NCBI RefSeq assembly: GCF_000023965.1 | Contig: NC_013202.1 | Location: forward strand, 990,001-1,022,000 | Length of the DNA: 32,000 nucleotides | From: Halomicrobium mukohataei DSM 12286 | Lineage (GTDB): Archaea; Halobacteriota; Halobacteria; Halobacteriales; Haloarculaceae | Reading direction: 5' to 3' | Program-made: the position numbers and the translations under genes | The notes under the pieces: model-generated | The model's input: only the letters and a program-made list of their open reading frames with translations | What the model was told of the DNA's origin: nothing | Databases searched by the model: none | Shown here: positions 1,051 to 24,989 of the stretch, piece after piece | Layout of the letters: the number at the start of each line of letters is the position of its first letter | Position numbering within the stretch: position 1 is the stretch's first letter

Positions 1051-1257
1051 AACAGCAGTTCGGACGACGTGAGCGCCAACACGCTTCGCCACAGCGTTGC
1101 GTGGTGGATGCTCCAGGCAGCGGATGGAAACACGCTCTCCGACGTTCGAAACCGACACATACAGCCGACAGTATCAGTGCTGTCTGCCGATTCGACAGAG
1201 CAGAATCGACCGCACGACGGCGGCGATTGTCCGTCTGAGTGGACAAAGCGTTTGTAA
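1051..1257 (+). pseudogene. C-terminal fragment of a tyrosine recombinase/integrase
   Basis: NQQSDDVSANTLRHSVAWWMLQAADGNTLSDVRNRHIQPTVSV resembles the xTxHxLRHSxA ... LGHxxIxTT catalytic region of XerC/D-type integrases. Bounded upstream by TAG at 1048-1050, about 68 codons, no N-terminal domain, catalytic Tyr not recognisable. Confidence 0.5.
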
Positions 1258-1280
1258 CCGGGTACGGAAGTGTGGCAGAG

Positions 1281-2174
1281 ATGGTCAACACGACGAAGTT
1301 GCTCTTGGGTCTCACCTTCGTACTGGTGCTTTTGATAGTGGACGTGCTCGTCTCGTATTTCACTGGCACCCTGGGCGAAGGCGTTGCGACGTTTCTCATC
1401 CAGGCGCTCGGGACTGTTGCCACCCTCCTTTTCGTCGGAGCGACGTTTCTCACGGTCCGTCAAAACCGAAAGACGATCCAGGAGCTCAGAAAGGATCGAG
1501 AAAAGCAAGTCGTCATCGACGAACTCCAGTACGTCATCCAGCCCGCGATAGATCGCCTCGCCGGGAACATCGAGAAGCTGGAAGCGGGTTTCGTCGGCTG
1601 GAAACCCGGCGACCAAGCATTTCCAGCAGACGAGCAGTGGGAGCCCGAGGGTGGGCTTTCGATTCAGAAGCCCCTCTCGAAGACGCAGACGGACGAGGCA
1701 GCACTGTTGCGTTCGAAAGAGCGCCACCCGGAGTTACACTCGGAACTGGAGTCGTACGACACGACGGTCGATGACTTGACTGCGGCGGCACGTGACGTGG
1801 TGCGGACAGCTGGTCCCGAACTGACGGCAAAAGTCGAACGTGACGTGCCCCGGTTCGACTTCTCTCGGGGGAGCATGAGTGTCGACCCGCCGCGGCTTTT
1901 GTCGTATCTCTTAGACGGCGAGGGGCGGGAGTACCGAGACCTCCATACCGGCTGGTCGCAGCTACTCGAACAGCGCGGAGACGAATTCCGGGCGCTCCTC
2001 GACGAGGTTGCTCTCGAAGAGCGCCAGCAACTCCGCAACGAGAAGCGTCGAACGCTCGCCGAATCACGACGGCTGCGGTCCGATCTCATCGAGATACGGA
2101 ACACGCTCCAGGAGGAGTACGGGATCTCGGTCAACGAATTCACGCGGGAGAATCTCGTCGAGAGCGCCACATAA
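1281..2174 (+). CDS. Membrane-anchored (2 TM) protein with a charged coiled-coil cytoplasmic domain, unknown function
   Basis: ORF 1239-2174. ATG at 1281 (MVNTTKLLLGLTFVLVLLIV...) begins the hydrophobic segment; the alternative start is 1239. Two TM helices, then an acidic/Arg-rich helical region. I recognise no family. Confidence 0.6.
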   Translation: MVNTTKLLLGLTFVLVLLIVDVLVSYFTGTLGEGVATFLIQALGTVATLLFVGATFLTVRQNRKTIQELRKDREKQVVIDELQYVIQPAIDRLAGNIEKLEAGFVGWKPGDQAFPADEQWEPEGGLSIQKPLSKTQTDEAALLRSKERHPELHSELESYDTTVDDLTAAARDVVRTAGPELTAKVERDVPRFDFSRGSMSVDPPRLLSYLLDGEGREYRDLHTGWSQLLEQRGDEFRALLDEVALEERQQLRNEKRRTLAESRRLRSDLIEIRNTLQEEYGISVNEFTRENLVESAT

Positions 2175-9436: not shown

Positions 9437-9497
9437 CACGTCAGTGTGGCCGGTCGAACCCGTCACCGACCAGCGCCGGCTTTCGACGTTCAATGGG

Positions 9498-9504
9498 TTT
9501 AAAT
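9498..9504 (+). promoter_or_regulatory. TATA box (TTTAAAT) for the 9529 gene
   Basis: 25-31 nt upstream of the ATG at 9529. This argues against the longer ORF start at 9493. Confidence 0.5.
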
Positions 9505-9528
9505 TACGTGAGAGATGAACTGATGGTA

Positions 9529-10035
9529 ATGACCCTCTCCGAGATCGCGGCCGGGATCGAGGTGACTGCCACCCAGCGCCAGCACGGCGTGGCGTCGGTC
9601 GATCGAACGGAGGGAACGCTGGCGGAACGCCTCGACGGCGTCGGGACCCGGCTCCCCTGTGATCCCGAGCGGGCGGCGACGCTGGTCGAGGCCTACGCGG
9701 CGGGCGAGAGCGTCGGTGACGCCGGTCGGGCGGCGGGACTCACACCGCTTACGGCAGCCAAGACGCTCCACCTGTGTGGCGAACACGTCTGTCCGCTCAG
9801 CCCGCGCCAGCGCGACGTGCTCGACGACTGGCTATCGGGCGACCTCGCTCGCAGCGAGGCGGTCGCACTCACCGGCGCGAGCGAACGCGAGTTCGCGCTG
9901 GCGACGTACGTCGCAACGCACGAACCGATCGCCGACGCACGCGAAGCGCTCGAAGGCGCGCTGACAGACGGTCGAGGGACCGACCGACAGGCGTCGCTGG
10001 GCGACGCCGTCGAGCAGCCGTCGGATCTGCTCTGA
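9529..10035 (+). CDS. Conserved hypothetical protein with two HTH-like segments
   Basis: MTLSEIAAGIEV... (168 aa). Candidate HTHs are SVGDAGRAAGLTPLTAAKTLH and ARSEAVALTGASEREFALATY. The stop TGA (10033-10035) overlaps the first base of a palindromic repeat. Confidence 0.6.
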   Translation: MTLSEIAAGIEVTATQRQHGVASVDRTEGTLAERLDGVGTRLPCDPERAATLVEAYAAGESVGDAGRAAGLTPLTAAKTLHLCGEHVCPLSPRQRDVLDDWLSGDLARSEAVALTGASEREFALATYVATHEPIADAREALEGALTDGRGTDRQASLGDAVEQPSDLL

Positions 10036-10115
10036 TACGGTTTATTGTAGTTGCTTACCGGTGATCGTCGCCACGGAGTAGACGATCACCGGTAAATCGC
10101 TACAATAATCCGTAT
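10035..10115. repeat. 81-bp imperfect palindromic repeat, copy A (inverted relative to copies B and C)
   Basis: Arms ATACGGTTTATTGTAGTTGCTTACCGGTGATCGTC and GACGATCACCGGTAAATCGCTACAATAATCCGTAT pair at 30 of 35 positions. The 11-nt loop GCCACGGAGTA is the reverse complement of TACTCCGTGGC, which is close to the copy B loop. Confidence 0.85.
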
Positions 10116-10161
10116 GAGACGGGGGAGACGCTCACCGGTACGTCGCTACAACTGTCCGTAT
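10116..10161. repeat. Half copy (loop plus one 35-nt arm) of the same repeat, abutting copy A
   Basis: GAGACGGGGGA + GACGCTCACCGGTACGTCGCTACAACTGTCCGTAT. The arm closely matches the right arm of copy B. Confidence 0.7.
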
Positions 10162-10228
10162 GCGGCCGTGGCCGTCACCGTCGTCTCATCCCCGGTTACG
10201 GTTCGACACGGCGGGCCAGCCAGCGGTG

Positions 10229-11409: not shown

Positions 11410-11523
11410 ACTCTCCCGTGCGTCCGGCGACCAAATCAAAGTTCGCCACTCGTCCGTCGGTGCCCGCGACGCTCGACCGCGGATATCGACCGGTTCACGT
11501 TCTCCGCCGTCCACGTCTGAGCC

Positions 11524-13271: not shown

Positions 13272-13351
13272 CAGTCGCGATCGCGTCTCGTCTCACACCT
13301 TCCCAGACGACACGACCTCGGACGGCCGAGAGGAAACTATTTGTTCCACGT

Positions 13352-14060: not shown

Positions 14061-14132
14061 TAGCTGCTCGCCCCGCTGGCGCTTCCGCCGGTCGTGATCC
14101 GTCTTCTCGGTGCAGTGTGACCGTTTCCCCGG

Positions 14133-14158
14133 TCGACCGCACGCAGTCGTGCGGTCGA
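14133..14158. terminator. Perfect 10-bp hairpin between convergent genes
   Basis: TCGACCGCAC-gcagtc-GTGCGGTCGA, between the stop at 14060 (+) and the ileS stop at 14186 (-). Confidence 0.35.
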
Positions 14159-14185
14159 TCCGGAACAGATCTACAATACTCCGTC

Positions 14186-17100
14186 TTAGTCGTCTGCTTC
14201 GGCGGTCTCGACGGTGGCGATGGCGATCTCCATCTCGACGCCTTCGACCGACCAGGTCTTGCGGTGGCCGTCCTCGACATCGCCGAACTCGTCGGCGCGG
14301 ACCTCCTCGGCGATGAGCTGCTCGTGTTCGCGCACGAGCTCGTCGATGCGCTCGTCGGCGACAGCGAGATCGAGGCGGATGCGCTCTTCCAGGTCCAGTT
14401 CCAGATCCTTGCGCATCTCCTGGACGCGGCGGATGACCTCGCGTGCGTATCCCTCGCTCTCGATGTCCTCCGTGAGCGTGGTGTCGACGTAGACGACGCC
14501 GTGGCCGCCCAGTGCCTCGAACTCGGTGCTCGCGACGCCTTCGGGCGTCTCGCGGCGGAACGACACCATCTCGTCGGTGAGCGCGACGGATTCGCCGAGC
14601 GCGTCCGAGACGGCGGCTTCCAGCGTGTCGAGGCTGGCTTCGTCGACGCGGGCCTCGTTGAGCGCGTTCATCACGCGGCCGGCGTCGTCACCGAAGGCCG
14701 GGCCGAGTTCGCTCATGTCGGCCTCCGCGGAGTAGGCCAGTTCGCCCCAGGCGTCGCCGCCGCCGACGATCTCGACGGTACGGGCGTTGAGCCGGTCGGC
14801 GACGAGGTCGGTGTGGGCCTCGATGGCCGCGGTGACGTCGTCGCTGTCGGTGTCGATCACGACGCGCGTGACCGGCCAGCGGAGCTTGCGCTCGGCCTGC
14901 TGGCGGGCGTTCGAGCCGGCCTCTTCGACGGCGCGGGCGACGGTGACCTCGTCTTCGAGCGTGGGATCTCGCAGTTCGTCGTCGACCGTCGGCCAGTCGC
15001 ACATGTGGACCGTCGGGTGCTCGCTCTCGCCGGTGAGCGTCCCGTAGATCTCCTCTGCGACGAACGGCGTGAACGGTGCCAGCAGCGCGACGACCTCGCG
15101 GAGCACGCGGTACAGTGTCGCGTAGGCGGCCCGTTTGGACTCGCTGTCGTCTTCCTCCCACATGCGCTCGCGGACCAGCTGGACGTAGTAGCGGGACACG
15201 TCCTCGACGACGAAATCGAGGATCCCCTCGATGGCGTCGTCCTGACGGAACTCCTCCATCGCTTCCGTCGCTTCGGCCTCGACCGTCTGGAGCCGCGAGA
15301 GCACCCACTCGTCGGCCAGGTCCAGCGTCACGTCGTCGATCCCGGTCCCTTCGGCGGCATCGCCGCCTTCGGATCGTTGCGACTCCGTCGCAACGCGCGG
15401 CGAGAACCCGTCCATCCGCATGTACGGCAGCGGGAAGCGAAAGACGTTCCAGAGGATGTTGAGCCGTCGCTGCATCTCCTCGGTCCCGTCGTACGAGAAG
15501 TTCATGTCCTCGCCGCGGGCGGCGAGCGACAGGAGGAACGCGCGCATCGGGTCCGCGCCGTAGTCGTCGATGACCTCGCCGGGGTCGACGCGGATGTCCC
15601 TGGACTTGGACATCGCGCGCCCGTCGGGCATCAGCGCGTGGCCGTGCATCACGACGCGCTCGTAGGGACTCGCGCCGACCGCCGCCGTCCCCATTCCGAG
15701 CTGGGACCAGAACCAGCCGCGGGTCTGGTCGTGGGCCTCGATGATGAGGTCGGCGGGCCACAGTTCGTCGAAGGCCTCGGTCTCGGAGGGGTAGTCGATC
15801 GTTCCCCACGTCGCGACGGCGGAGTCGAGCCACACGTCGAACACGTCCGGCACCCGCTCGTAGGTGACCCCGTCTTCGGTGATCGTCAGGTCGTCGACGG
15901 TGTCCTTGTGGAGGTCGACGGTCTCGGGGTCGATCTCCTGGTCGACGGCGTCGGCCAGCTCCTCGCGGTCGCCGACGACGATGGCGTCGTCCATGTCGCC
16001 GCTCCACTCGACGGGCTCGCCGTCGGCGTCCTCGCTGGGCAGCCAGATCGGGACCGGTGTCCCCCAGTACCGCTGTCGCGAGACGTTCCAGTCGGGGGCC
16101 TCCTCGACGAAGTTCCGGAAGCGGTTCTCGCGGGCCTCGTGGGGGTACCACTCCGAGTCGTCGATGTTGGCAAGCAGGTCGTCTTTGATGTCCGTGATCG
16201 TGATGAACCACTGGTCGGTGACGATCTGGACGATGCCCGTGTCACAGCGCCAGCAGTGGCCGTAGCTGTGTGTCGTCGTCTCGGCGGCCAGCATCCGACC
16301 GCGCGCTTCGAGGTCGTCGATGATCTCGTCGTCGGCGTCTTTGACGAACTGGCCTTCGTACGTGCCGGCGGCCTCGTCGTAGACGCCGTCCGGACCGACC
16401 GGACAGAAGATCTCCAGTCCGAGTTCGCGCCCGCGCTCGAAGTCTTCCTCGCCGTGGCCCGGTGCGGAGTGGACCAGCCCGGTCCCCTCGCCCTCGGTGT
16501 CGACGTACGGTGCTTCGTACACCTGTCCAGCACCATCGCCGTCGGGTGCGTCGGGCACTTTCTCGCGAAGCGGGTGGTCGTACTCCCAGCCAAGCAGGTC
16601 CTCGCCGCTCAGTTCCTCGACGATCTCGTAGTCGTCGTACCGACCCGCCCGGAGTACCTCGTCGACCTTCGGCTCGGCGACGTACAGCAGTTCCGTTTGG
16701 CCGTTTCGGGTCGCCTCGACGCCGACGTACGTCCCCTCGCCGTCGACCGCGACGAAGGTGTTTGCCGGGATCGTCCAGGGCGTCGTCGTCCAGACGACCA
16801 GATTCCCCTCGCGGTCGGCGAGGTCGAACTTCACGTAGATCGACGGGTCCTCCACGTCCTCGTACTCGACCTCGTTGTTGGCGATGGCGGTCTCACAGCG
16901 GGGACACTGGGTGATCGAGCGCTGGCCCTGCTCGACGAGATCGCGCTCGTGAGCGCTGGCAAAGCCCCACCAGGCGGCCTCCATGTACTCGGGCTCGACC
17001 GTCCGGTAGGGATTGTCCCAGTCCATCCAGACGCCGAACGACTTGAAGTCCTCTTGCAGGCCTTCGAGGCTCGTCTCGGCGAACTCCCGGCAGGCGTCGA

Positions 17101-17455
17101 CGAAGTTCTCGACGCCGAACGCCTCGATGTCTTTCTTGTTCCGGAACTCTTTCTCCTCCTCGACTTTGGTCTCGATCGGCAGGCCGTGCATGTCGTAGCC
17201 CGGCCGGTCGGTCACGTCGTAGCCGCACATTCGCTTGTAGCGGATGTACACGTCCTTGAGGCTCTTGTTCCAGGCGTGGCCCATGTGGGCCGAACCGGAC
17301 GTGTAGGGCGGTCCGTCGACGAAGAAGAAGTCCTCGCCGTCGGCCCGGTGCTCCACTGTCTTCTCGTAGGCGTCGATATCGTCCCAGTACTCGAAGACCC
17401 GCTCCTCGACCGCGGCGGGGTCGTACTGGTCGTCGACGGGGGCGAAGCGTTCCAT
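14186..17455 (-). CDS. ileS: Isoleucine--tRNA ligase
   Basis: 1089 aa. HIGH-type motif SGSAHMGH and KMSKS-type AMSKS. Class I editing-type synthetase of archaeal IleRS length. Confidence 0.95.
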   Translation of the reverse strand: MERFAPVDDQYDPAAVEERVFEYWDDIDAYEKTVEHRADGEDFFFVDGPPYTSGSAHMGHAWNKSLKDVYIRYKRMCGYDVTDRPGYDMHGLPIETKVEEEKEFRNKKDIEAFGVENFVDACREFAETSLEGLQEDFKSFGVWMDWDNPYRTVEPEYMEAAWWGFASAHERDLVEQGQRSITQCPRCETAIANNEVEYEDVEDPSIYVKFDLADREGNLVVWTTTPWTIPANTFVAVDGEGTYVGVEATRNGQTELLYVAEPKVDEVLRAGRYDDYEIVEELSGEDLLGWEYDHPLREKVPDAPDGDGAGQVYEAPYVDTEGEGTGLVHSAPGHGEEDFERGRELGLEIFCPVGPDGVYDEAAGTYEGQFVKDADDEIIDDLEARGRMLAAETTTHSYGHCWRCDTGIVQIVTDQWFITITDIKDDLLANIDDSEWYPHEARENRFRNFVEEAPDWNVSRQRYWGTPVPIWLPSEDADGEPVEWSGDMDDAIVVGDREELADAVDQEIDPETVDLHKDTVDDLTITEDGVTYERVPDVFDVWLDSAVATWGTIDYPSETEAFDELWPADLIIEAHDQTRGWFWSQLGMGTAAVGASPYERVVMHGHALMPDGRAMSKSRDIRVDPGEVIDDYGADPMRAFLLSLAARGEDMNFSYDGTEEMQRRLNILWNVFRFPLPYMRMDGFSPRVATESQRSEGGDAAEGTGIDDVTLDLADEWVLSRLQTVEAEATEAMEEFRQDDAIEGILDFVVEDVSRYYVQLVRERMWEEDDSESKRAAYATLYRVLREVVALLAPFTPFVAEEIYGTLTGESEHPTVHMCDWPTVDDELRDPTLEDEVTVARAVEEAGSNARQQAERKLRWPVTRVVIDTDSDDVTAAIEAHTDLVADRLNARTVEIVGGGDAWGELAYSAEADMSELGPAFGDDAGRVMNALNEARVDEASLDTLEAAVSDALGESVALTDEMVSFRRETPEGVASTEFEALGGHGVVYVDTTLTEDIESEGYAREVIRRVQEMRKDLELDLEERIRLDLAVADERIDELVREHEQLIAEEVRADEFGDVEDGHRKTWSVEGVEMEIAIATVETAEADD

Positions 17456-18697: not shown

Positions 18698-18784
18698 TCC
18701 TGTCGGCCGTACCGCTGCAAGCTATTCGCTACGGACAGGTAGCCGCTCTGAGACGGCCAGCCGCGACCGTCTCGGCCAGTCCGA

Positions 18785-18955
18785 CTACTCGGCGAAGTAG
18801 CTGGTGAAAAAGCCCGAGAGGAACGAGGAGATGGCGACCGCCAGTGCCATATCGCCGAGTCCCCACGGTCCGTCGTCGTCGGCCAACGCGACCGTGACGC
18901 CGACGCTGACGACAAGTGAGACGATTCCGTTGACGAGGTGCTTTCCGAAACCCAT
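18785..18955 (-). CDS. Small membrane protein (56 aa, below the ORF-track cutoff)
   Basis: MGFGKHLVNGIVSLVVSVGVTVALADDDGPWGLGDMALAVAISSFLSGFFTSYFAE*, translated by hand. Two hydrophobic helices and good GC3. Confidence 0.45.
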   Translation of the reverse strand: MGFGKHLVNGIVSLVVSVGVTVALADDDGPWGLGDMALAVAISSFLSGFFTSYFAE

Positions 18956-19014: not shown

Positions 19015-19040
19015 CCCGATCAGGGACCAACCTCGCGCCG

Positions 19041-20519
19041 ATGGGACCAGTCCCCGACCTCGACGACGTTGCGACCGCGTGTGCCCAGCGGCTCTGTCGC
19101 GCGGATCGCGTACTGTTGGCGTCACACATCGACGCCGACGGCCTGACCAGTGCCGCCGTCGCCTCGCTGGCACTGGAGCGGGCCGGAATCCCCTTCGAGG
19201 TCGTGTTCAAGAAGCAACTCGACGAGACAGAGATCGCCTCGATCGCCGCCCGCGAATACGACACCGTCCTCTTTACCGACTTCGGCAGCGGGCAACTCGA
19301 CGTGATCAGCGAGCACGAGCGAGCGGGCGACTTCGAGCCCGTGATCGCCGACCACCACCAGCCGGCCGTCGTCGACGGGCAGCGCCCGTCTGCCAGTGGG
19401 ACGGACTCTCACCCTGCCGAGACGGAGTTTCACCTGAACCCGCTGCTCGTCGGCCTCGACGGGGCCTCGGAGCTGTCGGGTGCGGGCGCGAGCTACGTCC
19501 TCGCGCGGGCGCTGGCCGAGGTCGGCGAGACCGAGCCACCCGACGGGAACCGGGACCTGGCCGGTCTGGCCGTCGTCGGCGCTGTCGGTGACATGCAGGC
19601 CGTCGACGGCGAACTCGTCGGCGCGAACACCGGCATCGTCGAGGAGGGCGTCGCGGCCGGCGTCCTCGAAGAGGGGACCGACCTGACGCTGTACGGCAAG
19701 CAGACCCGGCCGCTGCCGAAGCTACTGGAGTACGCCACGGAGGTCCCGATCCCCGGCATCTCCAACGACGAGGCCGGCGCGATCCGGTTTCTCGAATCGC
19801 TCGGGCTCGACCTGAAGCGGTCCGGCGAGTGGCGCACGTGGGCGGACCTGACCGACGACGAACGCCAGACCGTCGCCAGCGCGCTGGTCCAGCGGGCCGT
19901 CGAGCGCGGCGTGCCCGCCGACGACATCCAGACGCTGATCGGCACGACGTACACGCTGACCGAGGAGCCGACGGGGACGGAGCTGCGCGACGCCAGCGAG
20001 TTCTCGACGCTGTTGAACGCGACCGCCCGCTACGAGCGTGCCGACGTGGGCCTTGCGGTGTGTCGCGGCGACCGCGAGGCCGCGCTCGACCGCGCCCAGA
20101 CGCTGCTCTCGAACCACCGTCGGAACCTCTCGGAGGGACTGACGCTGATCCAGGAGCGGGGCGTGACCCACGAGGACAACGTCCAGTGGTTCGACGCCGG
20201 CTCGGCGATCCGCGAGACGATCGTCGGCATCGTCGCCGGCATGGCGCTGGGGACGGCCGGCGTGGACGCCGACAAGCCGATCCTCGCGTTCGCCAGCAAG
20301 GACGACGACGAGACGAAAGTCTCCTCGCGCGGGACCGGCCCGCTCGTGGGACGGGGCCTGGACCTCTCGGCGGTGATGCGCGAGGCGGCCCGTTCGGTCG
20401 GCGGCGACGGCGGCGGCCACGACATCGCGGCCGGCGCGACCGTTCCGGCGGGCGAAGAGCAGGCCTTCGTCGACGCCGCCGACGAGATCGTGGCCGACCA
20501 GCTCGGCAACAAGAGCTAA
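19041..20519 (+). CDS. Archaeal RecJ-like DHH/DHHA1 phosphoesterase (RecJ/Cdc45 family)
   Basis: 492 aa. SHIDADGLTS, DHH motif IADHHQP and DHHA1 motif GGDGGGHDIAAGA. Confidence 0.85.
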   Translation: MGPVPDLDDVATACAQRLCRADRVLLASHIDADGLTSAAVASLALERAGIPFEVVFKKQLDETEIASIAAREYDTVLFTDFGSGQLDVISEHERAGDFEPVIADHHQPAVVDGQRPSASGTDSHPAETEFHLNPLLVGLDGASELSGAGASYVLARALAEVGETEPPDGNRDLAGLAVVGAVGDMQAVDGELVGANTGIVEEGVAAGVLEEGTDLTLYGKQTRPLPKLLEYATEVPIPGISNDEAGAIRFLESLGLDLKRSGEWRTWADLTDDERQTVASALVQRAVERGVPADDIQTLIGTTYTLTEEPTGTELRDASEFSTLLNATARYERADVGLAVCRGDREAALDRAQTLLSNHRRNLSEGLTLIQERGVTHEDNVQWFDAGSAIRETIVGIVAGMALGTAGVDADKPILAFASKDDDETKVSSRGTGPLVGRGLDLSAVMREAARSVGGDGGGHDIAAGATVPAGEEQAFVDAADEIVADQLGNKS

Positions 20520-22014: not shown

Positions 22015-22259
22015 TGGAGACGGGCCCCACACTGCCGGCAGTAGACGAACGCGGGGTCGTTCTCGTTGTGCGTGCCACACTCGCGGCAGCGGCCGCCGCC
22101 AGTGGGATCGCCCGCGTCGACAGACGCCGGGGCGGCGGTGTCCACTCGGCTCGGCGTCGCGTCGGGTGCGGGGTCGTCACGCTGGAAGTACCGGTAGAGC
22201 AGCAACTGCACGAGCCCGAACCCGAGGACGTACGCGACGAGCCAGAACACCACGTCCAT
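22011..22259 (-). CDS. Membrane-anchored zinc-ribbon protein
   Basis: 82 aa. N-terminal TM helix, then CRECG...CRQCG. Confidence 0.65.
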   Translation of the reverse strand: MDVVFWLVAYVLGFGLVQLLLYRYFQRDDPAPDATPSRVDTAAPASVDAGDPTGGGRCRECGTHNENDPAFVYCRQCGARLQ

Positions 22260-22306
22260 ACCGTGTGATTCGGTACCGAGGAACTTGGCTGTTTCGGCAG
22301 GTTCTC

Positions 22307-22387
22307 ATACGGACGGTTGTCGTCCTGTACCGGTGAGCGTCTACCCCGTGGCGACGCTCACCGGTGCGCAACGACAACGTTCCGTAT
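22307..22387. repeat. 81-bp imperfect palindromic repeat, copy B
   Basis: ATACGGACGGTTGTCGTCCTGTACCGGTGAGCGTC / loop TACCCCGTGGC / GACGCTCACCGGTGCGCAACGACAACGTTCCGTAT. The arms pair at 29 of 35 positions. Confidence 0.85.
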
Positions 22388-22423
22388 CAGAGACGATAGT
22401 TCGGCGGGTCCCGTCGAACGGCG

Positions 22424-22737
22424 GTGTTCAGATAAGAGATCGAGAGTGGCGGAAGTAAAGCACCGAAAGCCCTCGGCCCGCTCGGCGGTTCTGTGGCGGA
22501 TATCCTCACTCCGCTCGGATAGTGCCGCCGCAGAACCGCCGAGCGGGCCTCGCCCTTTCATCCGCCAGGTATCGGCTATTTGATCGTCTGAACCCTGGCG
22601 GATGAAAGGGCGAGTGCAGTTGCGGGAACCCGGACCCCGCAAGCACCTACTGGAGCGCAGCGTGGGTCCCGGGACCGCAACTGCACGAGGGCTTTCGGTG
22701 TCTACAAGTCCACTGACGCAGTCGCTTATCTGAACAC
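22424..22737 (+). ncRNA. Candidate large structured RNA (four-way junction), family unknown
   Basis: P1 22424-22436/22725-22737 (13 bp) and P2 22461-22475/22686-22700 (15 bp). Hairpins H1 22476-22548, H2 22549-22614 and H3 22615-22685 abut with no linkers. The G-U pairs are compatible only with the plus strand. No credible ORF. Confidence 0.5.
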
Positions 22738-22756
22738 TACCCATCGAACAGATCCC

Positions 22757-23659
22757 TCACCGATCGGGCGGGGACAGATCGCGACCGAACTCGTCGAACT
22801 GGGTGACGTCGTCGGGGACCGTACTGTCGAGTTTGCGCTGGTCGCGCCGGTCGACGTTGGCACCGTCGAGCGAGTCGGCGACGGACTCCCAGCCGTCCTT
22901 GATGGCGACGCTCTCCGCGGGGGTGCCGGCCGCGATGTGGTGGGCGGGTACGTCGCGACTGACCGACGACTTGGCCGCGAGAATCGAGTTCTCGCCCAGT
23001 CGGACGCCGGCCCGGACCATCGAGTCGTAGGTGACCCGAGCGTCGTCTTCGATGATCGTGTGGTAGTTGTCGACGTGGGTCTGGTCGACCGAATCGTGGT
23101 CGTGGGTGTAGACGTGTGCGTCGTCGGAGATAGAGACGCGGTCACCGATCGTCAACCGTCCGCGGTCGTCAAGGTGTACGTCGTCGTGGATCACGACGTT
23201 GTCACCGACGGTGATGTTGTGGCCGTAGGTGAACGTGATCCCCTTGAAGAACCGGCATCCGTCGCCGACTTCCTCGAAGAGGTGCTCCGCGATCATCCGT
23301 CGAAAGCGCAGCGCGAACTCGACGTTGTCCGCCATCGGCGTCGCGTCGAACTGTCGCCAGAGCCACTGGAGGTACTTCGACTCCGAAAAGGCGTCTTCGT
23401 CTTTCTCCGCGTAGTACTCGCTCTCCAGGGTCGCGTTACAGGGATCGTACCCCTGCAGACGGACCCGCTCGGCCGGCGACACGTCCTCGCCCGACTGCCA
23501 TCGCTCGTAGGCCTCCCGGTCGCCGTGGAGGTCGACCAGCACGTCCTCGACGACGTCGCAGGTGTCCTCGTCGCTCGCGAGGCGCTCGTCGACCTCGGAG
23601 ATGAACGCGCGCAGGCCCTCCTCGGCCAGCGGCGGCAGCGAGACGTGGCGCTTCGTCAT
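22757..23659 (-). CDS. Hexapeptide-repeat (left-handed beta-helix) acyltransferase with an N-terminal extension
   Basis: 300 aa. Repeats ITVGDNVVIHDDVHLDDRGRLTIGDRVSISDDAHV... then GENSILAAKSSVSRDVPAHHIAAGTPA. Confidence 0.8.
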   Translation of the reverse strand: MTKRHVSLPPLAEEGLRAFISEVDERLASDEDTCDVVEDVLVDLHGDREAYERWQSGEDVSPAERVRLQGYDPCNATLESEYYAEKDEDAFSESKYLQWLWRQFDATPMADNVEFALRFRRMIAEHLFEEVGDGCRFFKGITFTYGHNITVGDNVVIHDDVHLDDRGRLTIGDRVSISDDAHVYTHDHDSVDQTHVDNYHTIIEDDARVTYDSMVRAGVRLGENSILAAKSSVSRDVPAHHIAAGTPAESVAIKDGWESVADSLDGANVDRRDQRKLDSTVPDDVTQFDEFGRDLSPPDR

Positions 23660-23818: not shown

Positions 23819-24829
23819 ATGGCGCGATCGGATCTCATCACGGAGGTACGCCGCGTGCTCGTGAACCCGCGGGAACGACGCCTGCGAGCGGGCTGGCGAC
23901 TGCTCGTCGGACTGCCGGTGCTCCTGTTCGTGCTGGCGGTCGCGGGCGTCGGTCAGCGGGCGGTACAGGCCATCCCGCTCACGGTGCCAGTGCTCGCGGG
24001 TGGGGCGATCCTGGCGGGAGCGCTGTTGTCCTACGGTGCCGGGACGGGCACGCTGGTCGGGCTCTCGTGGTGGCTCGGCGGGCGGACCCTCGCGGGACTG
24101 GGACTGGGCGGCGACGGCTGGTGGCGCAACCTCGGGTTCGGACTCGCCGTCGGGGTCGCGATGACGACGGCGATCTTCCTCGTCGAGTTGGGGCTGGGGC
24201 TGATCGCTGTCGACGGCGTACTCGTCGCGAGACCGACGAACCAGCTCGGCGTCGCCCTGCCGGTAGTGGTCGCCGTTCCGGTCACGCTCCTCTTTTTCGT
24301 CGGCGTCGGCGTCTTCGAGGAGGTGCTGACGCGTGGCTACCTGCTGAACAACATTGCCGAGGGGCTGAGCGGTGTCGGACCGGTCGGCAAGCGGGGCGCG
24401 GTCGCGGTTGCGGCGGCCGTGACCAGCGCCGTCTTCGGCCTGTTGCACCTGACGAACCCCAGCACGACGCTGTTTTCCACGCTCAACATCACCGTCGTCG
24501 GCCTGTTTTTCGCCGCGACCTACGTCGTCACCGACGATCTGGGAATCCCGATCGGGATCCACATCACGTGGAACTTCTCGCTGTCTTCGCTGTACGGCTT
24601 CCCCGTCAGCGGACTCGCGATGCCGGGGACCGTCCTCTCGGTCCGCCAGACCGGTGCCGACGTGGTGACCGGCGGCACGTTCGGCCCGGAGGGCGGACTG
24701 ATCCTCTATCTCGGGCTCGCAGTCGGGATCGCGCTCACCTGGTGGTGGGTCCGCCGAGTGGACGGCGCAGTGCGTTTTCGGACCGACATCGCCGACCCCG
24801 ATCTGCGCGATCCGCCCCGCCCCGAGTGA
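23819..24829 (+). CDS. CPBP-family intramembrane glutamic endopeptidase (CAAX protease-like)
   Basis: ATG at 23819 (MARSDLITE). Multi-pass membrane protein with FEEVLTRGYL, FGLLHL and HITWNF motifs. The stop TGA at 24827-24829 overlaps repeat copy C. Confidence 0.8.
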   Translation: MARSDLITEVRRVLVNPRERRLRAGWRLLVGLPVLLFVLAVAGVGQRAVQAIPLTVPVLAGGAILAGALLSYGAGTGTLVGLSWWLGGRTLAGLGLGGDGWWRNLGFGLAVGVAMTTAIFLVELGLGLIAVDGVLVARPTNQLGVALPVVVAVPVTLLFFVGVGVFEEVLTRGYLLNNIAEGLSGVGPVGKRGAVAVAAAVTSAVFGLLHLTNPSTTLFSTLNITVVGLFFAATYVVTDDLGIPIGIHITWNFSLSSLYGFPVSGLAMPGTVLSVRQTGADVVTGGTFGPEGGLILYLGLAVGIALTWWWVRRVDGAVRFRTDIADPDLRDPPRPE

Positions 24830-24909
24830 TACGGACGGTTGTAGCAATGTACCGGCGAGCGTCTCCCCGGTGGCGACGCTTACCGATACGCAACGACAAC
24901 GTTCCCTAC
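24829..24909. repeat. 81-bp imperfect palindromic repeat, copy C (more decayed)
   Basis: ATACGGACGGTTGTAGCAATGTACCGGCGAGCGTC / TCCCCGGTGGC / GACGCTTACCGATACGCAACGACAACGTTCCCTAC. 69 of 81 positions are identical to copy B by hand alignment. Confidence 0.8.
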
Positions 24910-24989
24910 GAGACCGGGCAGGCAGCGCCGGTGTCCTCGCGTGTGCCGGGACCAAGAGGGCTAAGTGCGCGCATCCGTAACGTCGGGAC

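Follow-up and report, generated by a model that had tools for sequence, protein, structure and literature searches.

Bacterial hairpin MITEs of the IS630 type (Correia/NEMIS, ERIC/MITEEc1, RUP) are about 100-150 bp long, form one long hairpin and reach hundreds of copies; they lie near gene ends, are co-transcribed with the genes and duplicate the dinucleotide TA (2 bp) upon insertion. For the haloarchaea, a 2024 automatic census in which MITEEc1 is also mentioned counted 251 MITEs in one Haloarculaceae genome and hundreds in some, the families themselves not being described (PMC11602168). The SMR-A repeats and MITEs (HqIRS families) of Haloquadratum walsbyi are transposase-free repeats of ~110 bp with prominent inverted ends; some of them have no identifiable working transposase, and 'switch repeats' are found at identical positions (PMC3119063). 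PATEs, which are common in haloarchaea, carry by definition sub-terminal palindromes at each end, and both the REP/RAYT and the PATE/IS200-IS605 elements have neither terminal inverted repeats nor a target duplication (PMC3119063).

Against this background we analysed a family of hairpins in a 32,000-nt stretch of Halomicrobium mukohataei DSM 12286 DNA (hereafter the window). An earlier note on the same DNA had described three full copies (A, B and C) of an 81-bp unit, each built as arm, 11-nt loop and arm, with ACCGGT in each arm. All three copies are present where they had been placed and were recovered as one family by a repeat finder, which also detected within A and within B an inverted repeat whose 39-nt arms are separated by 11 nt. 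The 81-bp intervals are correct, but each comprises a 79-bp element plus one base of a target duplication per side. The element proper is 79-80 bp long and reads TACGG...CCGTA, with terminal inverted repeats (TACGG..TGTAG and CTACA..CCGTA); the loop is indeed 11 nt, the arms measure ~34 nt, and ACCGGT was found in every arm. The element has no coding capacity and consists of one hairpin. Besides the three full copies the window contains one half copy and one relic, both of which had been missed (Table 1). Copy A is identical to the commonest sequence type of Halomicrobium katesii, and the half-copy arrangement next to it recurs in the same species (locus L053, 976-1018). The stop codon next to the relic reads TTA on the plus strand (14186-14188). 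At 2209-2245 of the window, TGA-TACGGGCACCTGTCGTC resembles the first ~17 nt of an element end and then diverges, which may be a truncated relic or chance. No tRNA was found in the whole window, and Rfam gave no match at the gathering score over the same length; a permissive Rfam search of 22200-22800 yielded only miRNA-type hairpin noise, far below threshold.

Table 1. Positions of the repeats and associated features in the window.
Feature	Position	Strand	Remarks
Left duplication of copy A (TGA)	10033..10035	+	doubles as stop codon of the DUF7858 gene (9493-10035)
Copy A, subfamily 1a, 79 bp, TACGG...CCGTA	10036..10114		right duplication TGA 10115-10117
Half copy, left-truncated, older subfamily-1b	10119..10162		right arm and part of the loop; directly after copy A
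Empty target site GTC TGA GCC	11518..11520	+	3 nt upstream of the UPF0047 start codon
Decayed subfamily-2-like relic	~14112..14185		TAA stop of the minus-strand ORF 14186..17455 lies directly at its right end
Copy B with duplications	22305..22389		TCA 22305-22307, element 22308-22386, TCA 22387-22389
128-aa ORF in the second MITE	22358..22744	-	no Pfam match; probably spurious
Second MITE, ~315 bp	22424..22737		unrelated to the 81-bp family
Copy C with flanks	24827..24911		TGA 24827-24829, element 24830-24908, decayed CGA 24909-24911

We consider it very probable that these hairpins are a MITE without a transposase gene that inserts at, and duplicates, TGA/TCA, very often at stop codons. The main evidence comes from the flanks. 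With the element set as TACGG...CCGTA and three bases compared per side, identical direct 3-nt flanks were found in 101 of ~110 full copies. The flanking pairs were TGA/TGA (57 copies), TCA/TCA (44 copies), TTA/TTA (one copy) and TCA/TGA (one copy); the remainder were decayed copies or spurious pattern matches. Were the central base part of the inverted repeat, most copies would show TCA/TGA flanks; since these are the exception, the triplet is a direct duplication. Two empty sites were found. The first lies in the window (Table 1), where CACGTC-TGA-GCCATG corresponds to CACGTC-TGA-(80-bp element)-TGA-GCCATG in H. katesii; the H. katesii locus (L053) is 96-98% identical to the window, and the copy that fills the site, at 2377-2457, belongs to subfamily 2. 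The second is the site of copy B, which is shared by this strain and H. katesii (L096): in Halomicrobium sp. LC1Hm (L097) it is empty and reads CACCCC-TGA-GAACCTGCC, with a single TGA. A further H. mukohataei strain (L098) likewise lacks copy B; its sequence at this point is CGA, so that it offers no TGA target. Because the empty sites carry a single triplet and the filled sites two, we conclude that the element is mobile, that its boundaries are TACGG and CCGTA, and that insertion duplicates three bases. A 'TA' duplication of the IS630 type was rejected, as there is no TA in the empty sites. The L053 insertion falls 3 nt before the UPF0047 start in a divergent promoter region (window 11410-11523) and would displace the promoter by 83 bp; a speculative alternative is that the A/T-rich arm (GGTAAAC, ~25 nt from the element end) acts as an outward promoter.

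With respect to the central G/C of the duplication the arms face either way at random (35:37), which favours a staggered cut over crossover at an asymmetric core. The hairpins had previously been likened to REP/BIME or PATE elements. Those classes make no target duplication, whereas the hairpins do, as seen in 101 copies and at two empty sites, and they have full inverted ends as well; that class assignment is therefore wrong. Repeats of the REP/BIME type, kept by a RAYT (Y1/HUH) transposase, would share with the hairpins their shortness, high copy number, palindromy and intergenic position near gene ends, and such an origin agrees with the fact that a classical parent IS was not found. We nevertheless regard it as most improbable: REPs are palindromes of 20-40 nt that lack a target duplication, while a 3-bp direct duplication is proven here, the units are 79-80 bp with full-length inverted ends, and they are mostly solitary with no BIME-like alternating arrays. 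Their orientation is also random with respect to the target strand, unlike the strand-specific insertion of Y1 enzymes. Four of the five features by which MITEs are recognised were found, namely a short non-coding unit, inverted ends, a duplication of fixed length, and dispersed polymorphic copies. Searches of the accessible literature by organism, by element type and by literal sequence strings returned no description of the family, in line with the earlier note, whose author was aware of none with such a sequence in haloarchaea. The hairpin-repeat family is real and apparently new and undescribed; its kind, a MITE, is already known.

The distribution of the family was examined by scanning 185,579 species genomes with the core pattern TACCGGNGANCGTC-N9-13-GACGNTNACCG. 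The scan matched 86 loci, ~75 of them in H. katesii DSM 19301 and six in the MAG Halobacteriales archaeon QS_4_62_28, and the rest were a few chance matches in Actinobacteria and others. A profile scan for further copies, which had been proposed as a check, gave 128 non-redundant copies in the 86 loci and the window, ~110 of them full length, when carried out with an iterated nhmmer profile; this is far beyond chance, and it is a lower bound because the genome scan targeted a single core. At least 110 full copies lie within 0.69 Mb of H. katesii loci, and presence/absence polymorphism is seen between close strains. A segment of 6,095 bp of the window is identical to the Halomicrobium chromosome CP045142.1 (1655598-1661692). 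At least three subfamilies share the architecture TSA-TAC.G....TGTA...TACA....C.GTA-TSA and have different inner palindromes: subfamily 1 has inner TACCGGTGA(T/G)CGTC with CYCCGTGG as loop or centre, subfamily 2 has inner CAGTCGACCGCACG with ACGG, and subfamily 3 has ends TACTGCCGGCTGTAA and inner TTCGCGAC with CCCGTGG. The family was found in at least 10 genera of Halobacteria. On plasmids or secondary replicons, copies flanked by these triplets were seen in Haloarcula, Halococcus, a Natrialbaceae archaeon, Halostella, Salinibaculum, Salinirubellus, Haloplanus, Natribaculum and three Halomicrobium species; Haloarcula hispanica is a carrier of subfamily 3. Viral contigs scanned for the subfamily-1 core gave no match.

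Many of the insertions coincide with the ends of genes. In the window, copies A and C begin on the stop codons of the DUF7858 gene and of an Rce1-like/CPBP gene, respectively, the end of the latter gene being confirmed by NCBI gene calls, and the relic lies directly against a TAA stop. For the H. mukohataei JP60 plasmid NZ_CP039376.1, which is annotated in RefSeq, an annotated stop codon forms the flanking triplet in 11 of 17 copies, and divergent copies on Natrialbaceae and Halococcus plasmids are also placed on stop codons. The loci themselves, which were chosen for containing copies, were analysed with our own gene calls, made with a conservative GC3-based caller that misses roughly one third of genes. 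Of 98 insertions, 40 fell on called TGA stops, as compared with 4.8% of permissible TSA sites (p = 6e-27). Among sites up to 100 nt downstream of genes, 39 of 283 stop sites were occupied versus 14 of 479 other TSA sites (odds ratio 5.3, p = 3e-8). The consensus at occupied sites is GAC-TGA-GWC, both at stop codons and elsewhere, and the preferred 9-bp target is GAC-TSA-GWC; unoccupied TGA stops also tend to follow GAC. When sites were scored by their match to this consensus, occupancy at non-stop non-coding sites went from 0/1118 with no matches to 2/4 with six, and at stop codons from 0/17 to 5/7, although this analysis is circular in that the consensus was built from the same sites. At equal consensus match, stop codons were occupied 2-6 times more often, and among well-matching sites within called genes only 1 of 210 was occupied.

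The Rce1-like stop (GAG-TGA-GAC) was used by more than one subfamily. Both this strain and H. katesii have a subfamily-1 copy there, whereas in LC1Hm (L097) and another H. mukohataei strain (L098) the same TGA carries a subfamily-3 copy (~1171-1331, reverse strand), and in H. salinisoli the stop is without an element. Two subfamilies at one TGA reflect either independent insertions at a hot spot or the replacement of one element by the other. The use of an identical site by two subfamilies, like the pattern of one versus two triplets, is formally compatible with a site-specific (serine or tyrosine) recombinase whose TSA crossover core leaves a triplet on both sides. We think this highly improbable, as an asymmetric G/C core would fix the orientation of the element, contrary to the 35:37 of the arms, and hundreds of different sites of a degenerate target are occupied to graded extents. 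Returning to transposition with a staggered cut, genes in this acidic, GC-rich proteome typically end in GAC-TGA, such that stop codons mimic the preferred target. An insertion at a stop rebuilds it through the duplication and leaves the gene intact, and stop-codon insertions are thus both favoured and tolerated. In our reading two factors act jointly: gene ends happen to fit the sequence preference, and selection spares the insertions that rebuild a stop.

The 11-nt loop occurs in both orientations, as the exact reverse complements TACTCCGTGGC and GCCACGGAGTA, between arms that are otherwise identical. In the subfamily-1 copies of the H. katesii loci, one loop type was present in 50 copies and the other in 22, each in more than one sub-lineage. 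Relative to TGA the orientation of the loop shows a weak bias (47:25), with the same ratio at stop and non-stop sites, while the orientation of the arms is random. The loop motif CCCCGTGG is common to subfamilies whose arms differ; this conservation counts against a pure two-ends model, which does not predict it. Loops that turn between constant arms are known from the hairpin-loop 'minute inversions' of chloroplast non-coding DNA and from the flip/flop of parvovirus terminal hairpins. The likeness lies in the reverse-complement loop between the same arms; the context of those systems is unlike that of the haloarchaeal element.

To characterize the hairpins further, we compared their single-strand folds with those of dinucleotide shuffles. 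Copy A gave -51.5 / -48.0 kcal/mol (z -9.6 / -10.2) and copy B -57.8 / -58.1 kcal/mol (z -8.5 / -7.6), while copy C is decayed, with -31.2 / -38.5 kcal/mol and a z of only -2.1 / -3.5. The earlier note was right that an internal arm block is unpaired in all copies (arm positions 16-19 in our numbering never pair), and the three compensated arm positions that it listed are real and correspond to our pairs 30/50, 14/66 and 9/71. Pairs were then counted over 43 distinct subfamily-1 copies. Standard pairs made up 92.2% of pair cells versus 88.1% in shuffles, none of 500 shuffles reaching the observed share. The cells changed on both sides numbered 45 and came mostly from two pairs, 9/71 (A-U in 23 copies, G-C in 16) and 30/50 (U-A, that is T-A, in 25 and G-C in 14). 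In the covariation test, however, only seven pairs had any double change, which is not above shuffles (reached by 101 of 500). Private deviations from the sub-lineage consensus at paired positions comprised 38 mismatches, 12 G.T pairs and seven double changes. The proposal that the hairpin and not the sequence is conserved therefore holds between sub-lineages and subfamilies but breaks down within sub-lineages. The compensatory changes are a few events that were inherited by sub-lineages, and resident copies, of which copy C is an example, decay much like neutral sequence. Since resident copies lose pairs and double changes do not exceed shuffles, palindromy is kept in the amplifying copies and not at each resident locus. 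It could be maintained because both ends must fit the same enzyme, or by template switching that copies one arm onto the other. Palindromy would persist if only copies whose two ends match were mobilised again; compensated arm differences would then mark sub-lineages while resident copies decay.

These data also bear on the possibility that the hairpins are structured RNA or DNA elements selected at each locus, as a 3' UTR stabiliser, terminator or protein-binding site, with mobility being secondary. The hairpins are very stable, and many copies lie immediately 3' of stop codons and are thus probably co-transcribed; the loop motif is kept across subfamilies and the loop has its weak orientation bias relative to TGA. 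Selection for the structure at each locus is nevertheless unlikely. Breaks of pairs in resident copies outnumber compensated changes (38 mismatches vs seven), copy C has largely lost its fold, the loop bias is equal at stop and non-stop sites, no Rfam family matches, and the sites are polymorphic between close strains.

As for how a MITE of this kind might move, a transposase supplied in trans would bind both ends of the element and cut the target with a 3-bp stagger at TSA inside the 9-bp quasi-palindrome, and gap repair would then duplicate the triplet. The element consists essentially of two ~34-bp terminal inverted repeats and an 11-nt spacer, which is why it reads as a single long hairpin. 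By analogy we infer a DDE transposase making 3-bp staggered cuts, IS5/IS1031-like or IS30-like. The narrower assignment to the IS5 superfamily is offered tentatively, as a plausible candidate with the balance somewhat against it. IS30-type enzymes make 2-3-bp duplications and use palindromic hot spots. IS5-family ends usually begin with GA or GG, unlike those of the element, which begin with TAC. The ends also differ from the inverted repeat of ISLrh, GAACCTG... (PMC12016507). The IS1031 group of the IS5 family prefers TNA targets and makes an exclusive 3-bp repeat (PMC12016507), the nearest behaviour on record, and the TSA duplication of the element is a TNA triplet repeated directly and exclusively over 3 bp.

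We looked for an autonomous partner in several ways. No autonomous element with the same ends and duplication was found in the 0.94 Mb of DNA examined, and a search for unpaired ends, and for paired ends that share the duplication at a spacing of 120-5000 bp, returned only pairs of separate MITEs. When the three subfamily consensus sequences were compared with 72,556 plasmids by BLAST (up to E = 10), the matches were further MITE copies or noise only. The annotation of 200 kb of the 222-kb H. mukohataei plasmid contains just one IS1595 transposase and one TnpB. An all-against-all BLAST of the loci for IS-like repeats gave no partner and detected IS701-like, IS1595 and IS4/IS5-type elements (8-bp duplications).

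In L026 (1477-5745) an IS4/IS5-type element with the 8-bp duplication TTTATTRT interrupts a subfamily-1 copy, a case of one mobile element targeting another; two occurrences of the junction sequence at a distance of 2155 bp suggest a tandem duplication. Opposite window positions 13343-13350, H. katesii locus L053 (4291-5877) carries a 1.59-kb IS, with ends GTACGTGTTTA... and the 8-bp duplication GTTCCACG, that the window's strain lacks. On the H. mukohataei plasmid (L092) a truncated subfamily-3 copy (18708-18786) lies ~250 bp upstream of a tnpB gene (19032-20249), possibly an IS605-type element inserted into the MITE. This neighbourhood, the presence of TnpB genes in Halomicrobium and the abundance of the class in haloarchaea (PMC3119063) speak for a PATE, the terminal-only remnant of an IS200/IS605 (TnpA/TnpB) element. 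Such an origin has very little probability, given that the hairpin forms a single palindrome, has inverted ends and is flanked by a duplication.

For the preferred MITE reading we also considered a bolder form, in which the hairpins would be a 'safe-harbour' transposon superfamily of Halobacteria. Its target GAC-TGA-GWC would be shaped to the gene end typical of haloarchaea (Asp codon plus TGA), its transposase would lie outside the recognisable ISs, for example as a single-copy or domesticated gene, and the loop CCCCGTGG would serve, whichever way it faces, as a further signal for recognition. Because target and gene end coincide, the elements would home to stop codons and rebuild them. We hold this extended version to be rather unlikely.

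A second repeat lies close to copy B. What the earlier note had called a 'four-way junction' is a second MITE (Table 1). Its terminal inverted repeats read GTGTTCAGATAAG.../...CTTATCTGAACAC, and its duplication is ~10 bp long (GTTCGAYGGG). LC1Hm and another H. mukohataei strain lack it at the orthologous site, and it is repeated in H. katesii (L031 6096-6423, L032, L036 and L085).

The haloarchaeal mobilome thereby gains an abundant, apparently undescribed MITE superfamily, with more than 100 copies per Halomicrobium genome. The finding reveals no new kind of system; it is the target specificity that is notable. A target that mimics gene ends, combined with a duplication that restores the stop, offers a concrete and testable account of high transposon copy number in a compact genome. 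Because of the copies, many stop codons are immediately followed by a strong hairpin, which may affect 3' ends and mRNA stability. The copies could serve as strain-typing markers and provide natural data on the inversion of hairpin loops in vivo. They also seed spurious ORF calls: on NZ_CP039376.1 two RefSeq 'hypothetical protein' CDSs (L091 44428-44628 and L092 44684-45154) enter or start inside MITE copies and are probably annotation artefacts arising from the repeat.

Finally, we compared the element with the known systems. It is palindromic, abundant and intergenic, as are REP/BIME elements with RAYT and PATEs with IS200/IS605. The IS630-type hairpin MITEs are bacterial and duplicate TA (2 bp), whereas the element is archaeal, duplicates TSA (3 bp) and measures 79-80 bp. 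Haloquadratum SMR-A is similar in size, but it has no target duplication and targets IS605-type elements. Described haloarchaeal MITEs are mostly 200-520 bp long with longer duplications, and the element is thus shorter. From the MITEs of the IS5 superfamily (the IS1031 group and, among eukaryotes, PIF/Harbinger with the Tourist MITEs) it differs in its central base S (G/C), its 9-bp quasi-palindromic target, its TAC ends and the lack of a matching autonomous IS in the DNA and plasmids searched. Like them, it is short and non-coding, has two inverted ends, is present in high copy number and makes an exclusive 3-bp T-N-A duplication (PMC12016507).
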